Assembly (NCBI GenBank): GCA_044229975.1
Contig: JBGARZ010000005.1
Span: 128,001 to 192,000 of the forward strand
Reading direction: 5' to 3'
Origin: Polyangiales bacterium
Lineage (GTDB): Bacteria; Myxococcota_A; Polyangia; Polyangiales; Ga0077539
DNA: 64,000 nucleotides
The notes under the pieces were generated by a model. That model saw only the letters and a program-made list of their open reading frames with translations, was not told where the DNA came from and did no database searches. A program made the translations under genes and the position numbers. How positions within the stretch are numbered: position 1 is the stretch's first letter; each line of letters starts with the position of its first letter. This document shows, piece after piece, positions 28,004 to 64,000 of the stretch.

Positions 28004-28020
28004 CTGGCACCAATCTTTCA
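28004..28020 (+). promoter_or_regulatory. Possible sigma-54-type promoter upstream of the sigma-28 gene
   Basis: CTGGCAC-CAATC-TTTCA: perfect -24 box, but -12 reads TTTCA instead of TTGCA. Confidence 0.35.
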
Positions 28021-28099
28021 TTGTGTCGTCGCCGATGCCTTTCTGCCGGAGAGTCGCGCGACCCCGTTCGACCCCACCCACCAACCAACGGGTTGATCA

Positions 28100-28834
28100 A
28101 TGAACGCAGTGGAGTTTCGGGTGTCCGCTCAACCAACGTGTCCGCCGGCGGAGCCCCGAACACGTGCGCAGCTCACCGATGAGCTCGCCAAGAAGTACCT
28201 CGTGCGGGTCATCGCCCACGCGAAGCGCCTCGCCCGCCGACTCCCTCCGCACATAGCCCTCAACGAACTCATCAGCGCCGGGCTGCTCGGCGTCGTCGAG
28301 GGCTTTCTCCGCTTCGATCACGACCGGGCCGAGAGCCTCGACGTCTACCTCGATCACCGCATCCGCGGCGCCCTCCTCGATGAGCTGCGCCGCGTCGACC
28401 CCCTGACGCGCGCCCAGCGCGGCTTTGCCCGCAAGCTTGGCCGCGCCACGCGCCACGCCACCGCCGCCGGCGAGAGCACCTCCGACGAGTCCCTGGCTGG
28501 TGCGCTCGGTCTCAGCCTCACCGACCTCCGCGCCCGCGTCTCCCAGGTGAGCGTCGCGATGGCGATACAGTCCACGGGCGAGCAGGACGGCGGCGAGCAC
28601 GTCGAGGACGAGTCGCCCTCGCCCGACGACGCCGCGTCCGCGCAGCAGGAGTACTCGCTTCTCTCCGACGCGACCGACGCCCTCACGCCGCGCGAGCGCG
28701 AGGTGCTGCGCCTCTACTACGAAGAAGGCCAGACCCTCCGGGAGATCGGTGCGCAGCTCGGCGTGACCGAGTCGCGCGTCTCCCAGATCCACACCCGCGC
28801 CATCCAGAGCCTGCGCACGATGCTCTCCCCCTAA
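28100..28834 (+). CDS. fliA: FliA/WhiG-family (sigma-28) RNA polymerase sigma factor
   Basis: LARRLPPHI..ELISAG..RIRGALLDELRRVD (region 2); LYYEEGQTLREIGAQLGVTESRVSQIH (region 4). Confidence 0.9.
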   Translation: MNAVEFRVSAQPTCPPAEPRTRAQLTDELAKKYLVRVIAHAKRLARRLPPHIALNELISAGLLGVVEGFLRFDHDRAESLDVYLDHRIRGALLDELRRVDPLTRAQRGFARKLGRATRHATAAGESTSDESLAGALGLSLTDLRARVSQVSVAMAIQSTGEQDGGEHVEDESPSPDDAASAQQEYSLLSDATDALTPREREVLRLYYEEGQTLREIGAQLGVTESRVSQIHTRAIQSLRTMLSP

Positions 28835-28964
28835 GGCTCGGCGCGTCGCGACACGCGCCGTCACTTCACTTCACACCACTCATCACCGATCGATCTTCTC
28901 TTGCAGTCGATTCAAAGCCACATGTGGCGCGCGTCACCCGTTGATTGAATTCGTCGCTCAAGCC

Positions 28965-28991
28965 TCAAGCTAGATCGTCCACGGTCGATAA
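28965..28991 (+). promoter_or_regulatory. Putative sigma-28 promoter for the kinase gene
   Basis: TCAA-N15-GTCGATAA versus consensus TAAA-N15-GCCGATAA; intergenic, directly after the sigma gene. Confidence 0.65.
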
Positions 28992-29119
28992 TGGAAAGGG
29001 AGGGGTCACGGCGCGACGTGTTTGTGACCGCGCAGCGGCCCCGGCTGCCCCGACGGCTCCTTCCAGAGACGGCGGGTGACTTTGGGGGACGGTGAGAGCG
29101 GGAGGAGGTCCGGGCGTTG

Positions 29120-30478
29120 ATGGGAGAGATGGTGCTGTTGAAGTCGGGAACGCTGGTGGCTTCCCGATACCGGGTGAGAGAGGTTCTTGGCCGGGGCGGC
29201 ATGGGGGCGGTGTACCGGGCGGACGACACGCGCACGGGCCACGTGGTCGCTCTCAAGGCGCTGCGCGAGGACATGTACGAGCGGGAAGACCTCGTGAAGC
29301 GCTTCGAGCGCGAGGCCCGCGCGGCGGCTCGCATCGGCCACGAGGGCATCATCGCGGTGCGTGCGGTCGGTCACGACGGGGCGCGGCGCACCCGGTTCAT
29401 CGTGCACGAGTACCTGCGCGGAGCGGACGTCGCCGGCTGCCTGGGTGAGCTCCGGTGCCTGCCGGTGCGGGCCGCCATCGCGATCACGCTCCGGGTGATG
29501 GACGCCCTCATCGCCGCGCACGCCGCGGGCATCGTGCATCGCGACATCAAGCCCGAGAACGTCTTCCTCCACGAGCTCGACGACGGGCGGGTGGTGCCGA
29601 AGGTGATCGACTTCGGCATCGCGAAGGTCAGCGACGAGCTCGATCGCATGGAGCGCGCCGCGACCGGCACCGTCGTGGGGACGCCCTGGTACATGTCCCC
29701 CGAGCAGGCCCAGGGTTCGTCCCTGGTCGACGCGCGCACGGACGTCTGGAGCGTCGGGGCCATGCTCTACGAGATGGTGTGCGGCTCTCCCCCCTTCGCC
29801 GGGTCAGACCCCGACGCCGTGATGGCGCAGATCATCTTCGGGCGGCCGACCCCCCTCCGGCACCACGGGCCCACCGTACCCACCGATCTCCAGGAGGTCA
29901 TCCACCGCGCGTTGGAGCACGACCTCGACCGGCGGTACGCCACGATGGCGGAGTTTCGCGCGGCCCTCGTCCGTTGCCAGCTCTGGAGCGACGTGACGCC
30001 GGCCGACGCCCAGTCGTTTCTGCCGCGACCGAGTTCGTTCGACACCCTGGCCGACGAGTCGGCGACACAACCCGAACCCGACCTCCTCGATCGAGCGCTC
30101 GTCGAGCCCGAACCCGTCACGCCGCCGAGCGCCCCTCTGCCCGAAGCCCCGCCGGAGCTCTCGTTTCCGAGCTCCCGGCCCGGTCGCTCGATCCCCAGCG
30201 CCGACGCCCTGACGATGCGCGGGCTCCACGACCGGCCCGCGGGGCACACACCCCCTTCCGGCGATACGTCCCCGGCGCCAACGCCACGTCGGCGCAAGGT
30301 TCACCCCGGGGTGGGCGTCGCGCTCACCATGCTGTTCGGCGCTGTCCTCGTGGCGGGCGTCACCCATTGGATCCACCGCCCGCTGCTCGATCATCTCTCG
30401 GGCCGACCCCGCGCCGGGACGACGTTTGCTCCGACCGGAGCACTTTCTGACTCAACCATGCGGGGCAACAGCCGATAG
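29120..30478 (+). CDS. Hanks-type Ser/Thr protein kinase with C-terminal TM
   Basis: GRGGMGAVY, VALKAL, HRDIKPEN, DFG, GTPWYMSPEQ; GGAGG RBS. Confidence 0.95.
   Translation: MGEMVLLKSGTLVASRYRVREVLGRGGMGAVYRADDTRTGHVVALKALREDMYEREDLVKRFEREARAAARIGHEGIIAVRAVGHDGARRTRFIVHEYLRGADVAGCLGELRCLPVRAAIAITLRVMDALIAAHAAGIVHRDIKPENVFLHELDDGRVVPKVIDFGIAKVSDELDRMERAATGTVVGTPWYMSPEQAQGSSLVDARTDVWSVGAMLYEMVCGSPPFAGSDPDAVMAQIIFGRPTPLRHHGPTVPTDLQEVIHRALEHDLDRRYATMAEFRAALVRCQLWSDVTPADAQSFLPRPSSFDTLADESATQPEPDLLDRALVEPEPVTPPSAPLPEAPPELSFPSSRPGRSIPSADALTMRGLHDRPAGHTPPSGDTSPAPTPRRRKVHPGVGVALTMLFGAVLVAGVTHWIHRPLLDHLSGRPRAGTTFAPTGALSDSTMRGNSR
30452..30478 (+). promoter_or_regulatory. Putative sigma-28 promoter for the GGDEF gene
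   Basis: TCAA-N15-GCCGATAG, 22 nt before the ATG, followed by AAGGAG RBS. Confidence 0.7.
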
Positions 30479-30500
30479 GTACAATTCAAGGAGCCCTGCC

Positions 30501-31145
30501 ATGATTCGTCCGCGCCCCCCCACCGAAGAGACCGCCTCCCGCGCGATCAACCACCACCGCGAGCTCGCCTGCCTCCTGGGGCACGAAGCGCGAGGGCCCG
30601 GCGCAGACGACCTCGACACCCTGCGCGACCTGGGGTGCACGCTGGAGCGGGAGATCGAGCGCTTCGAGGCGTCGAGCTTCGACGCGCTGACGGGGCTCGC
30701 CAACCGCAGCGGGCTCCTCTCCCTCGGCGAGGAGATGCTCTCCATCTCGCAGTCCGCCGACGAGGGCGCGGCGGTGCTCTTCATCGACCTCGAAGACTTC
30801 AAGCCCATCAACGAGCGCTTCGGCACGATGGCCGGCGACCAGGCGCTGCGCGACCTCGCGCGCATCCTCGAAGGCAACTTCCGCGGAAGCGACCTCGTGG
30901 CGCGGCTCGGCGCGGACGAGTTCTGCGTGCTCATGGCACCGTACAACGACAAGAGCGACGACTTCGGGGTGACCTCGCGGGTGCAGGCCGCCATCGACCG
31001 CTACAACGAGACGGCCGGGGTTCCGTGGACGCTGCACGTCCATATCGGGGGCGCGCGGTGCCAGCCGGGCATGGGGCTCGACCGCCTGCTCTCCCTCGCC
31101 GACGCACGCATGACCGAGGCGCGCGAGCGCTCCGAGGGGCAGTAG
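30501..31145 (+). CDS. GGDEF-domain protein (GADEF variant, RxxD I-site intact)
   Basis: DALTGLANR, FIDLEDFKPINERFG, RGSDLVARLGADEF. Confidence 0.9.
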   Translation: MIRPRPPTEETASRAINHHRELACLLGHEARGPGADDLDTLRDLGCTLEREIERFEASSFDALTGLANRSGLLSLGEEMLSISQSADEGAAVLFIDLEDFKPINERFGTMAGDQALRDLARILEGNFRGSDLVARLGADEFCVLMAPYNDKSDDFGVTSRVQAAIDRYNETAGVPWTLHVHIGGARCQPGMGLDRLLSLADARMTEARERSEGQ

Positions 31146-38059: not shown

Positions 38060-39637
38060 GTGTTGACGGCGCGAGCCCGGGTGCTGCTGCGGGGACTGTT
38101 GCTGGCCGCGGTGGTGGTGGCGTCCGGGTTTCTGGCGTGGTGGTCGTGGCACACCTCCTCGGGGCTCGCGAAGACGGGCGAGCAGTCGGTCATCGAGAGC
38201 ACGGTGCTGCTGGTGCGCGAGAAGGTCGACCGCGTCGAGCGCACGCTCATCGACGGCGACAACGCGGTGCTGCCCCTCGTCCATCCCGACGACCTCGACG
38301 ACTTCGCGCAGCGGTGGCCCACCATGGCGGGGCGCATCTCGCCGACGGTGCGCTCGGTGGTGGTGCTCGACGAGGCGCTCCGACCGTTGCGCGTGATCGC
38401 CCACCGCGACGACGACGACCGCAGCGAGCTCCTCGGCTGGATCAACGACTGGTTCAACGGGCGGCTGCCGAAGCAGCCCGGGGACGTCCTGCCTCCCGCC
38501 TCGGTCCCGGGCACCTACGGCCACTGGCACGGCACCGTCGGCGGGCGGAGCCTGCTGATGTCCTTCTTCGTCGGCCAGACCGGGGGCAGGCCGTACTACG
38601 TCGTGCTGGAGGGCGACCTCGACTACGTGCGCAACGAGCTGCTCTCCAGGCTCTTCGACGACCCGCGCGCGCGCGGCCGGTACAACGTCACCGACCCCGA
38701 GGCGCACCAGTTCGTGGTGGGGCGGGCGCTCACCGCCAACCGCCAGTTTCTCGTGTCGACGCAGTTTCCGACCACGCTCTACAAGTGGCACCTCACCGTG
38801 GTCCCCGGGCTGACGGAGCAGCTCGAAGAGCGCAAGAAGCGGCAGCGCGTCGTCGAGGCGTCGTTCGTGGGCGCGTCGCTGCTGGTGATCCTCGTGGGGG
38901 TGTCGTTTCTGCTCTACGCCGCGCGGCAGGAGCAGCAGCTCAACACGCTCAAGAGCGACTTCATCGCGACGGTGTCGCACGAGCTCAAGACCCCGCTGTC
39001 GCTCATTCGCATGTTCGGCGAGATGCTCTCGGGCGACCGCGCGCCCACCGAGGAGAAGCGTCGGCAGTACCTGGAGATCATCGTGCGCGAGAGCGAGCGG
39101 CTCACCGCGCTCATCGAAAACGTCCTCGACTTCGCGCGCCTCGAACAGGGCGGCGCGGCCTACGAGTTCATCACCTCCGACCTCGGGGCGACGGTGCAGC
39201 GCGAGGTGGAGACGTTCCGCTTTCGGGCGCACCGCGAGCGGCCCGCGCTGGTGGTGGAGGTCGAGCCGGGCGTCGCGCCGGTGCGACTCGACGGGCGCGC
39301 GATGCAGGTGCTGCTGTTCAACCTGCTCGACAACGCGTTCAAGTACGCGGGCGACACCGACGCCGTGGTGGTGCGTGTCCGGCAGGAGGGCGCGCGCGCC
39401 GTGGTCGAAGTGGAAGACCATGGCCCCGGCATCGACCCCGAGGAGGGTCGGCGCATCTTCGAGCGCTTCTACCGCGGCAAGGCGGTTCGGTCGGGCGGGC
39501 CGCGCGGCACCGGCATCGGGCTGTCGCTCGTGCAGCAGATCGCGCGAGCGCACGGCGGCGACGTGACGGTGCACCCGGTCGCGCCCACAGGGACGGCGTT
39601 TCGGGTGGCGATCGCGGTGGAGAAGGCGGTCGGTTAG
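38060..39637 (+). CDS. Membrane sensor histidine kinase (no adjacent response regulator)
   Basis: Two TMs; VSHELKTPL H-box; NLLDNAFKY, DHGPGI, GTGIGL; GTG start inferred. Confidence 0.93.
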   Translation: MLTARARVLLRGLLLAAVVVASGFLAWWSWHTSSGLAKTGEQSVIESTVLLVREKVDRVERTLIDGDNAVLPLVHPDDLDDFAQRWPTMAGRISPTVRSVVVLDEALRPLRVIAHRDDDDRSELLGWINDWFNGRLPKQPGDVLPPASVPGTYGHWHGTVGGRSLLMSFFVGQTGGRPYYVVLEGDLDYVRNELLSRLFDDPRARGRYNVTDPEAHQFVVGRALTANRQFLVSTQFPTTLYKWHLTVVPGLTEQLEERKKRQRVVEASFVGASLLVILVGVSFLLYAARQEQQLNTLKSDFIATVSHELKTPLSLIRMFGEMLSGDRAPTEEKRRQYLEIIVRESERLTALIENVLDFARLEQGGAAYEFITSDLGATVQREVETFRFRAHRERPALVVEVEPGVAPVRLDGRAMQVLLFNLLDNAFKYAGDTDAVVVRVRQEGARAVVEVEDHGPGIDPEEGRRIFERFYRGKAVRSGGPRGTGIGLSLVQQIARAHGGDVTVHPVAPTGTAFRVAIAVEKAVG

Positions 39638-40566
39638 GGAGCGACGGGGTCGTCGCTCACCATGCGGTTGCGGCCCGCGTCCTTGGCCGCGTAGAGCAGC
39701 GCGTCGGCCCGCTCCAGCAGCGCCTCGGGGGCGACCATCGAGGGTTGCAGCGTGACCACGCCAAACGACGCGGTGATCTGCACGGTGGCGCCGTCGACGT
39801 CCCAGCGCGCGGTGCGGATGCGGTCCTGGAGGTCGCGCGCGAGCACCGTGGCGCCGGTGAGCTCGGTCTCGGGCAGCAGGATGGCGAACTCCTCACCGCC
39901 CAGGCGACCGAGGGACTCCTCGCGACGGACGCGCGCCAGGATGATGCCGGCGAAGTCGCGCAGCACGGTGTCGCCCGCGAGGTGGCCGTGGTGGTCGTTG
40001 ACGGACTTGAAGTAGTCGAGGTCGATGAGCACCAGCGACAGCGGGCGGTGGTAGCGGCGCGCGCGGCGAAACTCGCTGTCGAGGCGCTCGCGGAAGGCCG
40101 AGTGGGTGAGCGCGCGGGTGAGCCCGTCGGTGATCATCGCGGTGCGGATGGTCGTGAAGTACTGCCCCTCCACGTCGCTCGCGCCGATGTACTTGAACAC
40201 CGTCCCCGCGATCTGGATGCGGTCGCCGCTCTCCAGGCGGCGCACCTCGATGCGGGCGTCGTTGACGAGCGTTCCGTTGGTGCTGTGGTCGTCGACGACC
40301 CACCACTCGCCGGCGCGGTGCTCGACGAAGGCGTGCGTGCGAGAGGCGCGCGGCTGGTTGAGCAGCACGGCGCAGCCCTCCCCGCGGCCGATGGCGTAGC
40401 GCCCGGTGAGGGGGTCGAGCTCATAGCGTCGACAGACCTCGCGCAGGTCGGTCGAGTGAACGATGACGAGGGAGCTCAGCGCCGGGGCGGGCCACGCGAC
40501 GACGGGTGCCACCGCGAGGAGGTTGGGCTCGGTGACGCGCTGCCGGTCGGCGCTCTCCAGGGGCAT
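39634..40566 (-). CDS. FHA-GGDEF diguanylate cyclase
   Basis: FHA (IGR, ASRTHA, STNGT); DLDYFKSVNDHHGHLAGD; RLGGEEF. Confidence 0.92.
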   Translation of the reverse strand: MPLESADRQRVTEPNLLAVAPVVAWPAPALSSLVIVHSTDLREVCRRYELDPLTGRYAIGRGEGCAVLLNQPRASRTHAFVEHRAGEWWVVDDHSTNGTLVNDARIEVRRLESGDRIQIAGTVFKYIGASDVEGQYFTTIRTAMITDGLTRALTHSAFRERLDSEFRRARRYHRPLSLVLIDLDYFKSVNDHHGHLAGDTVLRDFAGIILARVRREESLGRLGGEEFAILLPETELTGATVLARDLQDRIRTARWDVDGATVQITASFGVVTLQPSMVAPEALLERADALLYAAKDAGRNRMVSDDPVAP

Positions 40567-63007: not shown

Positions 63008-63059
63008 CGGCATTTTCTGTGCATTTTGGCCTCAAGGGCGAAGGCGAATTGACCGATAG
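63008..63059 (+). promoter_or_regulatory. Tandem sigma-54-like and sigma-28-like motifs upstream of the PAS kinase
   Basis: CGGCA-TTTTCT-GTGCA (GG-N10-GC) at 63008-63023; TCAA-N16-ACCGATAG at 63032-63059. Confidence 0.4.
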
Positions 63060-63197
63060 ATGGACTGTGGACGCCGCAGGGCATCGCGCCCTGCGCCCCA
63101 GAGACCTCATCGGCCATGGACCCACTGCCCTCACCACCGGTCCCGCCTTCACGGCATCGGTTGCGTCCATCCACCCATCGCTCGAAAGGGAACTGAG

Positions 63198-64000
63198 ATG
63201 GGCACGGCGGTTCACAGGCTCCTCCGCCAGATCGATCACGACATGCGCGTCGCGCTCCTGCTGGTCACTTCGGAGGGCGTGGTGCTCCACGCCGACCCCG
63301 ACGTGCGGGCGCTGCTCGGCCGTAGCCCGGCCCAATGCGAGGGCCGCTCCCTCGACGAGCTCATCCCCTCCATCGATCTCCTGGCCGCGATGCGCGAGGT
63401 GCACCTCGGCCTCGTCAAGCGCTGCACCCTCACCGTCGGCGTCGACGCGCCCATCCGCCGCCTGCTCGTCTCGCTGAGCGCCGTGCGCGGCGTCGCGGTC
63501 GAGCCGATGGTGGCCGTGCAGGTCACCTCGATGGACGACTACCGCGAAGAGCGCCAGGCGCGCGCCGCGGTGCGCCTGCGGGCCACCATCGAGTCGGTGA
63601 TCGCGGGCTTCGCGCACGAGGTTCGCAACCCCATCGCGGCCATCCTGAGCATCACGGAAGCAGCCCTCACCGACATGGCCCCCGGCACGACCGCCACCGC
63701 GATGCTCACCCGCATCCCGGGCCTGGTGAACCGCGTCGACAAGCTCATCAAGGAGTCGCTGCACTACAGTCGGCCGCGCTGTCCGAAGCGGGCCCCGCGC
63801 CCGCTGCGCTCGCTCGTCGACTGGTCCATCCAGCTCGCGCAGATGGAGAAGGGCGGCATCGACTTCGAGGTCGCCATCGACGACTCCCTCGGCGCCGTCC
63901 TCGTCGACGCCGAGCAGATCGAGCAGGTCATCGTGAACCTCCTCTGCAACGCCCGCGACGCCGCGCGACGGCGGGTTCAGCTCACGGCGCGCCGCGAACC
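63198..64000 (+). CDS. PAS-like sensor histidine kinase, NtrB-like (partial, runs off the window)
   Basis: Translated by hand: MGTAVHRLL...GFAHEVRNPIAAI...QIEQVIVNLLCNARDA; AAGGGA RBS; absent from the ORF track because no stop lies in the window. Confidence 0.88.
   Translation, partial: MGTAVHRLLRQIDHDMRVALLLVTSEGVVLHADPDVRALLGRSPAQCEGRSLDELIPSIDLLAAMREVHLGLVKRCTLTVGVDAPIRRLLVSLSAVRGVAVEPMVAVQVTSMDDYREERQARAAVRLRATIESVIAGFAHEVRNPIAAILSITEAALTDMAPGTTATAMLTRIPGLVNRVDKLIKESLHYSRPRCPKRAPRPLRSLVDWSIQLAQMEKGGIDFEVAIDDSLGAVLVDAEQIEQVIVNLLCNARDAARRRVQLTARRE

Follow-up and report, generated by a model that had tools for sequence, protein, structure and literature searches.

It was found that a stretch of 64,000 nucleotides from an uncultured Polyangiales bacterium (assembly GCA_044229975.1, contig JBGARZ010000005.1, positions 128,001 to 192,000; hereafter the window) carries a gene for a sigma-28 paralog followed by a Ser/Thr kinase gene and a GGDEF gene, each of which is preceded by a sigma-28-like promoter. 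This sigma factor (28121-28834) is distinct from flagellar FliA and likely drives a small regulon of signalling genes through TCA(A/T/C)-N15/16-RYCGAT(A) promoters; its predicted targets include a membrane Ser/Thr kinase and a degenerate GGDEF protein. What can be read directly from the genomes is a paralog clade for the sigma factor, its coexistence in other genomes of the genus with a FliA encoded in a flagellar island, the absence of that island from this genome, the conservation of the promoter motif with the gene cassette, and a split at promoter position -11 within the genus. The source genome (G000) is 10.0 Mb in 39 contigs, with 71% GC and 93% completeness. Its genes were called with a home-made hexamer caller, and gene starts are thus approximate.

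All coordinates refer to the window and its plus strand unless stated otherwise. The sigma gene occupies 28121..28834; the open reading frame is open from an ATG at 28100, and the true start is probably the GTG at 28121, which is preceded by GGAG. Regions 2, 3, and 4 were found (Pfam Sigma70_r2 and r4, with a weak region 3 match, E 1e-3). The best family is FliA/WhiG (TIGR02479, 165.1 bits, below the curated cut-off of 189.6), and the protein is the best FliA/WhiG match in G000. Its best PDB matches include WhiG-type and FliA chains, while its nearest homologs are in records titled Polyangiales, Myxococcales, or Myxococcota. The next gene (29120..30478) encodes a Hanks-type Ser/Thr kinase (Pfam Pkinase, 1.9e-45), and the one after it (30501..31145) a GGDEF protein with a degenerate A-site (GADEF) and an intact RxxD I-site, as seen in an 18-member family alignment. 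The predicted promoter P1, TCAA-N15-GTCGATAA, lies at 28965..28991 (predicted +1 near 28999), and P2, TCAA-N15-GCCGATAG, lies at 30452..30478 (predicted +1 near 30486). The final three bases of P2 are the TAG stop codon of the kinase gene, and AAGGAG follows at 30488-30493, ahead of the ATG of the GGDEF gene at 30501. An earlier sequence-only reading of this DNA had described this gene order, both sites, and the P2 -10 box holding the kinase stop codon beside an AAGGAG ribosome-binding site. The observation of two sigma-28-like promoters behind a FliA/WhiG-type sigma gene was confirmed in all these respects, and profile searches (TIGR02479, Pkinase, and GGDEF) agree on the genes.

Is this sigma factor a flagellar FliA? 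Close homologs (57-75% identity) were found in all eight genomes of the same genus (congeners), the copy number reaching five. In every congener examined, the gene lies outside any flagellar cluster. Five of the eight congeners have an island FliA alongside the paralog, and this FliA is only 35-38% identical to the window sigma. The sigma copies of the genus form one clade (support of 100 in the SH-like approximate likelihood ratio test, SH-aLRT) apart from the island FliAs, and its sister group consists of copies found in the family's other genera (support for the union, 98). The trees contained no WhiG sequence. A topology joining the genus sigma copies and the genus island FliAs in one clade was rejected by the approximately unbiased (AU) test (p=2.4e-10; alignment of 47 rows, from which three group 1/2/RpoH-like outgroup rows were excluded). 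Since five congeners carry both sigmas at this low identity and the one-clade topology is rejected, the window sigma is, on phylogenetic grounds, a separate sigma-28 paralog and not an orphaned flagellar FliA.

The flagellar island comprises a complete set of approximately 40 genes in five of the eight congeners (loci L131-L133 in G001:C183, L134-L136 in G004:C197, and L137-L139 in G003:C4) and is absent from G000. In G001, Pfam names the full set from FliF to FliD, plus FlgM and FliA behind flhA-flhF. Flagellin was also found in five of the eight. Profile searches of the whole G000 genome, 93% complete, gave no match for flagellin, FlgM, rod proteins, or FliG; the lack of flagellar genes noticed earlier in the window extends to the genome. 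In tblastn searches of G000 with 42 island proteins, 36 gave no match, and the matches of the remaining six are to distant paralogs or to a shared OmpA domain. In G000, the genes that flank the island in G003 and G004 are separated by 50 bp, a gap that contains no N; this empty-site argument rests on these two genomes, the G001 island being located elsewhere. The sole FHIPEP match in G000 is a divergent stand-alone gene. It was rejected as evidence of a flagellum, since flagellated congeners carry the same gene in addition to the true flhA. Scattered divergent type III export paralogs are present in G000, namely a FlhA-like gene, a FliO-FliP pair, a FliI-like ATPase gene, and a FliN-like gene (C38:766562-768280, C11:682438-683423, C19:363081-364400, and C13:17101-18216). 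The FlhA-like gene was seen in seven of the eight congeners, beside the true flhA where that exists. These paralogs may represent an atypical needleless type III system.

The pattern TCAA-N15-GYCGATAR, which was drawn from P1 and P2 themselves, has only these two matches in the window (none in 100 shuffles), and they are two of the three matches in the 10-Mb genome. A matrix trained only on 13 sites from relatives was also scored against the upstream regions of 7,872 G000 genes. P2 and P1 ranked third and fourth at spacer 15. At a threshold of at least 19 bits, five genes were found at spacer 15, two at spacer 16, and zero to two at each other spacer. Four of the seven genes at spacers 15 and 16 have signalling domains, against a background of 6.7%. 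The other top matches precede a REC-EAL gene, a lipoprotein gene, and a PAS-histidine kinase gene in the window (63198 onward), which is followed by a REC-sigma54 activator gene. This third site in the window, TCAA-N16-ACCGATAG, lies at 63032..63059 and has the top matrix score of 23.0. No pil gene was found among the scoring sites of G000. A scan for sigma-70 promoters and terminators gave nothing relevant. A genome-wide peak of TAAA-N15-NYCGA(T/A) (30 matches) was dismissed as largely an artefact; the matches are mostly intragenic and repeat one coding motif read antisense, whose translation is the GAFTG loop of sigma-54 activators.

The motif is conserved with the sigma loci of the congeners. 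In 29 upstream regions of these loci, TCA-N-RYCGAT was found at spacer 15 in 11, at spacer 16 in three, and at spacer 19 in three, with none at the other 14 spacers; the background is 0.2-0.5% per region. The minor peak at spacer 19 results from a second conserved RYCGAT(A/C) box, which is located soon after the sigma stop codon in L045, L046, L051, L052, and L055 and at 28885 in the window. A possible weak tandem site, TCAC-N15-ACCGATCG, was seen at 28866..28892, and its form matches the sites preceding the kinase gene in G002 and G004. In loci of G001, G002, G004, and G008, a P1-type motif immediately follows the sigma gene, and the motif accompanies sigma copies across different genomic settings (C89 and C132 of G004). 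In G001, G002, and G008, a P2-type motif precedes the GGDEF ortholog by 23-27 nt, while no motif was found before the ortholog in G006. Since the site is intergenic in these three genomes and lies behind a different gene, the overlap of P2 with the kinase stop codon is incidental. Outside the cassette, the REC-EAL target retains TCAT-N15-GCCGATG in two of three close orthologs. The regulon had been described as local; P1 and P2 are indeed conserved with the cassette, but further sites exist elsewhere, including the one at 63032. Judging from the predicted sites, the regulon looks small (roughly 5-10 promoters) and fluid.

The kinase has intact glycine loop, VALK, HRDIKPEN, DFG, and SPE motifs in an alignment with eight homologs, seven of them from the sigma cassettes of congeners, and one predicted C-terminal transmembrane helix (residues approximately 397-415, hydropathy 2.08). 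In the GGDEF family, the A-site reads GGDEF in six of 18 members and is non-canonical in 12, while the R-x-S-D I-site, five residues before the A-site, is present in all 18. The GGDEF protein is a stand-alone domain whose N-terminal GAF domain is decaying (detected by Pfam in two of the 18 members). Because the A-site is degenerate and drifting and the I-site is invariant, the protein is likely a receptor of cyclic di-GMP (c-di-GMP) rather than a cyclase. Some orthologs may be active, one third still reading GGDEF. The predicted targets are genes of phospho- and c-di-GMP signalling as had been proposed, although the GGDEF protein is probably not a maker of c-di-GMP. In G001, G002, G006, and G008, the sigma gene is at the same place in a longer cassette with genes for a CAP-like protein, the kinase, a kinase-PilZ fusion, and the GGDEF protein, and a PilZ gene lies upstream of the cassette in G001 and G002. 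Other sigma copies precede the kinase gene or a REC-EAL gene.

Group 3 sigma factors flip out the -11 base to melt the promoter, and the central CGA of the sigma-28 -10 element is usually invariant. In this genus, fliC and flgM instead have CGT(A/T)C boxes: the sites ahead of these genes read TCAAG-N14-GCCGT(A/T)C or G(G/A)CGTTC. When the sites were scored with a pattern that ignores the base following CG, the -11 base was T at all eight fliC/flgM sites of the genus. At the paralog loci, it was A in 16 cases, C in four, G in one, and T in none, among the 21 passing of 26 regions; the five non-A cases are poor matches. The Fisher value for the A-versus-T split is 2e-7, which is overstated, since the genomes are kin and only two flagellar genes are involved. 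Thus, the -11 base, not the TCAA -35 element, distinguishes the two classes. The TCAA variant had been singled out as shared by P1 and P2; both do have it, but so do the flagellin promoters of the congeners, the published WhiG2 consensus T(A/C)AA includes it, and it does not set this sigma apart. Upstream of the G000 genes, no CCGTWC site was found at spacer 15 or 16. The whole-genome counts of TCAAG-N14-RCCGTWC are not above controls and are informative by position only.

All listed promoter-contact residues are kept in the window sigma (D73, S79, Y83, R87, R89, D94, R97, D100, R104, R111, and Q229 in the alignment to PDB 9wsm); the checked equivalents in Pseudomonas aeruginosa are D66, S72, Y76, R80, R82, D87, R90, D93, R97, R104, and Q228. 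According to the report on P. aeruginosa sigma-28 (PMC12784957), D66 and Y76 hold the flipped-out -11 base, the specificity loop touches the backbone through K64 and S72, and R97 reads the extended -10 element. Alignment mapping revealed that the residues holding -11A and the extended -10 element (D66, S72, Y76, R80, and R97 in P. aeruginosa numbering) are retained in the window sigma. In the same numbering, the island FliA is altered by D66G, S72E, a one-residue insertion, E88Y, and R97K, and R and Q of region 4.2 are changed in the genus island FliA (ESMVSRLH). These patterns suggest two insulated sigma-28 regulons within the genus, while the sister genera blur the split.

A sigma-54-type -24/-12 element, TGGCAC-N5-TTTCA, is located upstream of the sigma gene at 28005..28020. 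It had been read as a sigma-54 site starting at 28004; the conserved element is present, but it starts at 28005 and its -12 half is TTTC, not TTGC. TGGCAY- or CGGCAT-N5-TT[CT]CA was found in 11 of 15 same-genus sigma copies, and 10 of 12 sister-paralog loci carry the canonical form TGGCAY-N5-NTGC. The GG at -24 is present, and the -12 dinucleotide is TC in the window, CC or TC in the 11 genus copies, and GC in the 10 sister-paralog loci. Because of this distribution, the predicted element is best described as a homolog of a sigma-54 promoter in which -13 has changed throughout the genus. G000 uses ordinary sigma-54 promoters: there are 48 canonical TGGCAY-N5-NTGC sites at spacer 5 versus 1-8 at other spacers. 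GTCGG-N-TGAC-like repeats were found upstream of several sigma copies, three at 31-32 bp intervals in four copies (L051, L053, L055, and L063, where they lie 30-100 bp above the sigma-54 element) and two in two more. They are candidate activator sites, their arrangement being the one expected of such sites. None were found upstream of the sigma gene in G000.

How else may these observations be explained? The sequence-only reading regarded the sigma factor as a redeployed sigma-28, and one could suppose that it is the flagellar FliA of this genus, left as an orphan by the loss of the flagellum and then redeployed. The sigma is the top FliA/WhiG match of a genome that lacks the flagellar island, but both genes coexist in the flagellated congeners, the identity to island FliA is far below that to the true orthologs, and the AU test rejects the required clade. 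The chance that the sigma is such an orphan is thus close to negligible; rather, it belongs to a separate paralog clade coexisting with flagellar FliA. It is very improbable that the motifs are chance matches or dead relics. Their genome-wide enrichment is weak by raw counts, but the 15-nt spacing stayed fixed at many congener loci while the spacer sequence diverged, and the site before the GGDEF ortholog was kept despite a different upstream gene. Another sigma-28-like protein of G000, encoded at C38:841575-842258 (L210:9576-10259), may be considered as the reader of P1 and P2, with the neighbouring sigma merely linked. This protein has its own lineage, which is conserved in all 24 family genomes and part of the order, and it matches TIGR02479 over the full length (E 5e-29). 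However, it is also present in family genomes without an exact motif match (G009, G011, G012, G018-G020, and G022), it lacks the D93 and R97 equivalents, its extended -10 residues and region 4.2 are altered, and there is no motif within its 3.6-kb C38 locus, whereas the motif accompanies copies of the window sigma. This possibility is improbable, although a little less so than chance matches.

An alternative that is unlikely but carries more weight than these is that the window sigma reads P1 and P2 with a specificity common to island FliA. Whether -11 is A or T would then reflect how a few promoters descended, and the two sigmas of flagellated relatives would feed one motility/c-di-GMP programme. 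Some sites of both classes have the same -35 TCAAG and upstream GGTG, T-type sites persist in genomes of the genus g5 that lack island FliA, and the motifs of the actinobacterial WhiG1 and WhiG2 could not be separated (bioRxiv 10.64898/2026.01.14.699351). On the other hand, none of the 21 paralog-locus sites of the genus, covering about six target gene families, has T; G000, with the paralog only, has no upstream T-type site at spacer 15 or 16; and the specificity loop of island FliA is remodelled. I give somewhat less than an even chance to a bolder reading, in which one myxobacterial genus would run two orthogonal sigma-28 regulons with a common -35 element, insulated at the flipped -11 base. 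The FliA loop would have been remodelled for GCCGT(A/T)C, while the expanding paralog would have kept GCCGATA for a sigma-54-gated c-di-GMP-receptor/kinase programme outliving the loss of the flagellum.

Several points weigh against a signalling regulon of the window sigma and its insulation. Genome-wide motif enrichment is modest; the scan ranks P1 and P2 near the top and shows an excess at spacer 15, but the raw counts rise little, and in strictly intergenic DNA, spacer 22 equals spacer 15 at 18 bits or more (five matches each). The site at 63032 is absent before the single ortholog found of the PAS-histidine kinase gene (G004). Five of the 26 cassette regions have no passing site, and five more pass only with non-CGAT boxes. 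The motif is also absent before the C17 copies of the PilZ, CAP, and kinase-PilZ genes in G000. The congeners are kin, and the counts therefore overstate the conservation; the eight flagellar sites derive from only two genes. G000 has the third sigma-28-like protein on C38, and the -12 part of the sigma-54 element is non-canonical. In G009 and G011, the T form also lies before genes for a REC-GGDEF protein and a histidine kinase. Moreover, g5 (G012, G019, and G023) has intergenic TCAAG-N14-RCCGTTC before flagellin, cheX-cheY, and cheW, while no island FliA, FlgM, or canonical FlhA was found in these three genomes (93-96% completeness). The sister paralog of g5 has the same -11 pocket residues as the window sigma, and it may read the T form, which would weaken the residue argument. 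Either the T-type sites of g5 remain from a recent loss, or they are read by this sister paralog, whose loop is like that of the window sigma. Because of these sites, insulation is supported only inside the genus of the window sigma. It was also observed that g5 retains one or two flagellin genes, some with a T-type promoter (L145-L148).

If the window sigma does control such a signalling regulon, a sigma-54 activator would turn on the sigma gene via the -24/-12 element, and control would be mainly transcriptional, there being no FlgM in the genome. The sigma factor would then raise c-di-GMP readers and breakers (RxxD-GGDEF, PilZ, kinase-PilZ, and REC-EAL proteins) and sensor kinases. In flagellated congeners, the -11 base would separate this programme from that of flagellin and flgM, which island FliA would read. 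A switch between motile and sessile states or between surface states is the probable output, which is a guess.

A sigma-54-to-sigma-28 cascade and c-di-GMP genes among the FliA targets are features of flagellar FliA/FlgM systems that the proposed regulon would share. The window sigma resembles FliA of the Pseudomonas and Escherichia coli FliA/FlgM systems in promoter form and in the kept -10/-35 contact residues (PMC12784957; PDB 9wsm and 6pmi), but G000 has no flagellin, FlgM, or basal body, and the gene is not part of a flagellar cluster in any congener examined. In Actinomycetota, as described in the bioRxiv report cited above, sigma-28 factors form two clades, WhiG1 and WhiG2, of which only one is linked to the flagellar cluster. 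The WhiG2 consensus is T(A/C)AA...GCCGATAA, and the commonest predicted targets are c-di-GMP enzymes and signalling genes. The window sigma may work like WhiG2, since it is detached from the flagellar cluster, has predicted c-di-GMP and signalling targets, and has P1 and P2 matching the WhiG2 consensus. It differs in belonging to another phylum and a separate paralog clade; the actinobacterial motifs, according to the same report, overlapped and were unassignable with CGA invariant, whereas flagellar sites here read CGT. In Rubrobacter, the targets of WhiG supported by transcription start sites include several diguanylate cyclase and phosphodiesterase genes and type IV pilus genes, and WhiG is held by RsiG-c-di-GMP (PMC8325347). 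That case is likewise a sigma-28-family factor in a unicellular bacterium with c-di-GMP genes among its targets; in contrast, no pil gene scored here, and the upstream control looks sigma-54-dependent. A degenerate A-site with an intact RxxD I-site is a receptor signature known from SgmT and ActA of Myxococcus xanthus and from PopA, and some non-canonical GGDEF A-sites are active (PMC3509222 and PMC3974145; the latter for activity). The window protein shares this signature but differs in being a stand-alone domain with a decaying GAF domain.

Full-text searches, in whose coverage most subscription papers are not included, gave no description of the sigma paralog or of a CCGTWC flagellar promoter in the Myxococcota literature. 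Flagellar gene expression is mentioned for mixed Myxococcota and Bdellovibrionota metagenome-assembled genomes in PMC11937823. Non-flagellar sigma-28 control of c-di-GMP genes is known in Actinomycetota, and Myxococcota would be a parallel case, in a genus mixed for the complete flagellar island. The actinobacterial regulons could not be distinguished by motif, while those of this genus are apparently separable at -11. This natural sigma pair bears on how sigma-28 specificity evolves and on whether the loop in region 2.3 determines the -11 base. The reach of the finding is limited by the organism being uncultured.

Some further signalling loci were observed. A signalling island of G000 (C17:135000-162500, L064-L065) has two MshEN-ATPases, another T2SSE ATPase, REC-GGDEF and REC-EAL proteins, and several histidine kinases. 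It also has relocated cassette copies of the PilZ, CAP-like, kinase-PilZ, and kinase genes, without the promoter motif. Beyond the site at 63032 (63032-64000, L068:5199-10502), the PAS-histidine kinase and REC-sigma54 activator genes are followed by a canonical sigma-54 promoter, a 120-aa gene, a REC-DUF4388 gene, and a gene for a small GTPase of the Arf family, which I presume to be MglA-like. This region is possibly a relay to a polarity module. On the minus strand of the window, an FHA-GGDEF protein with a canonical GGEEF site is encoded at 39634-40566; it is a candidate link from Ser/Thr phosphorylation to c-di-GMP synthesis. In G001, a paralog-type promoter precedes a gene for a BLUF blue-light sensor (L079:1501-2014, G001:C19).

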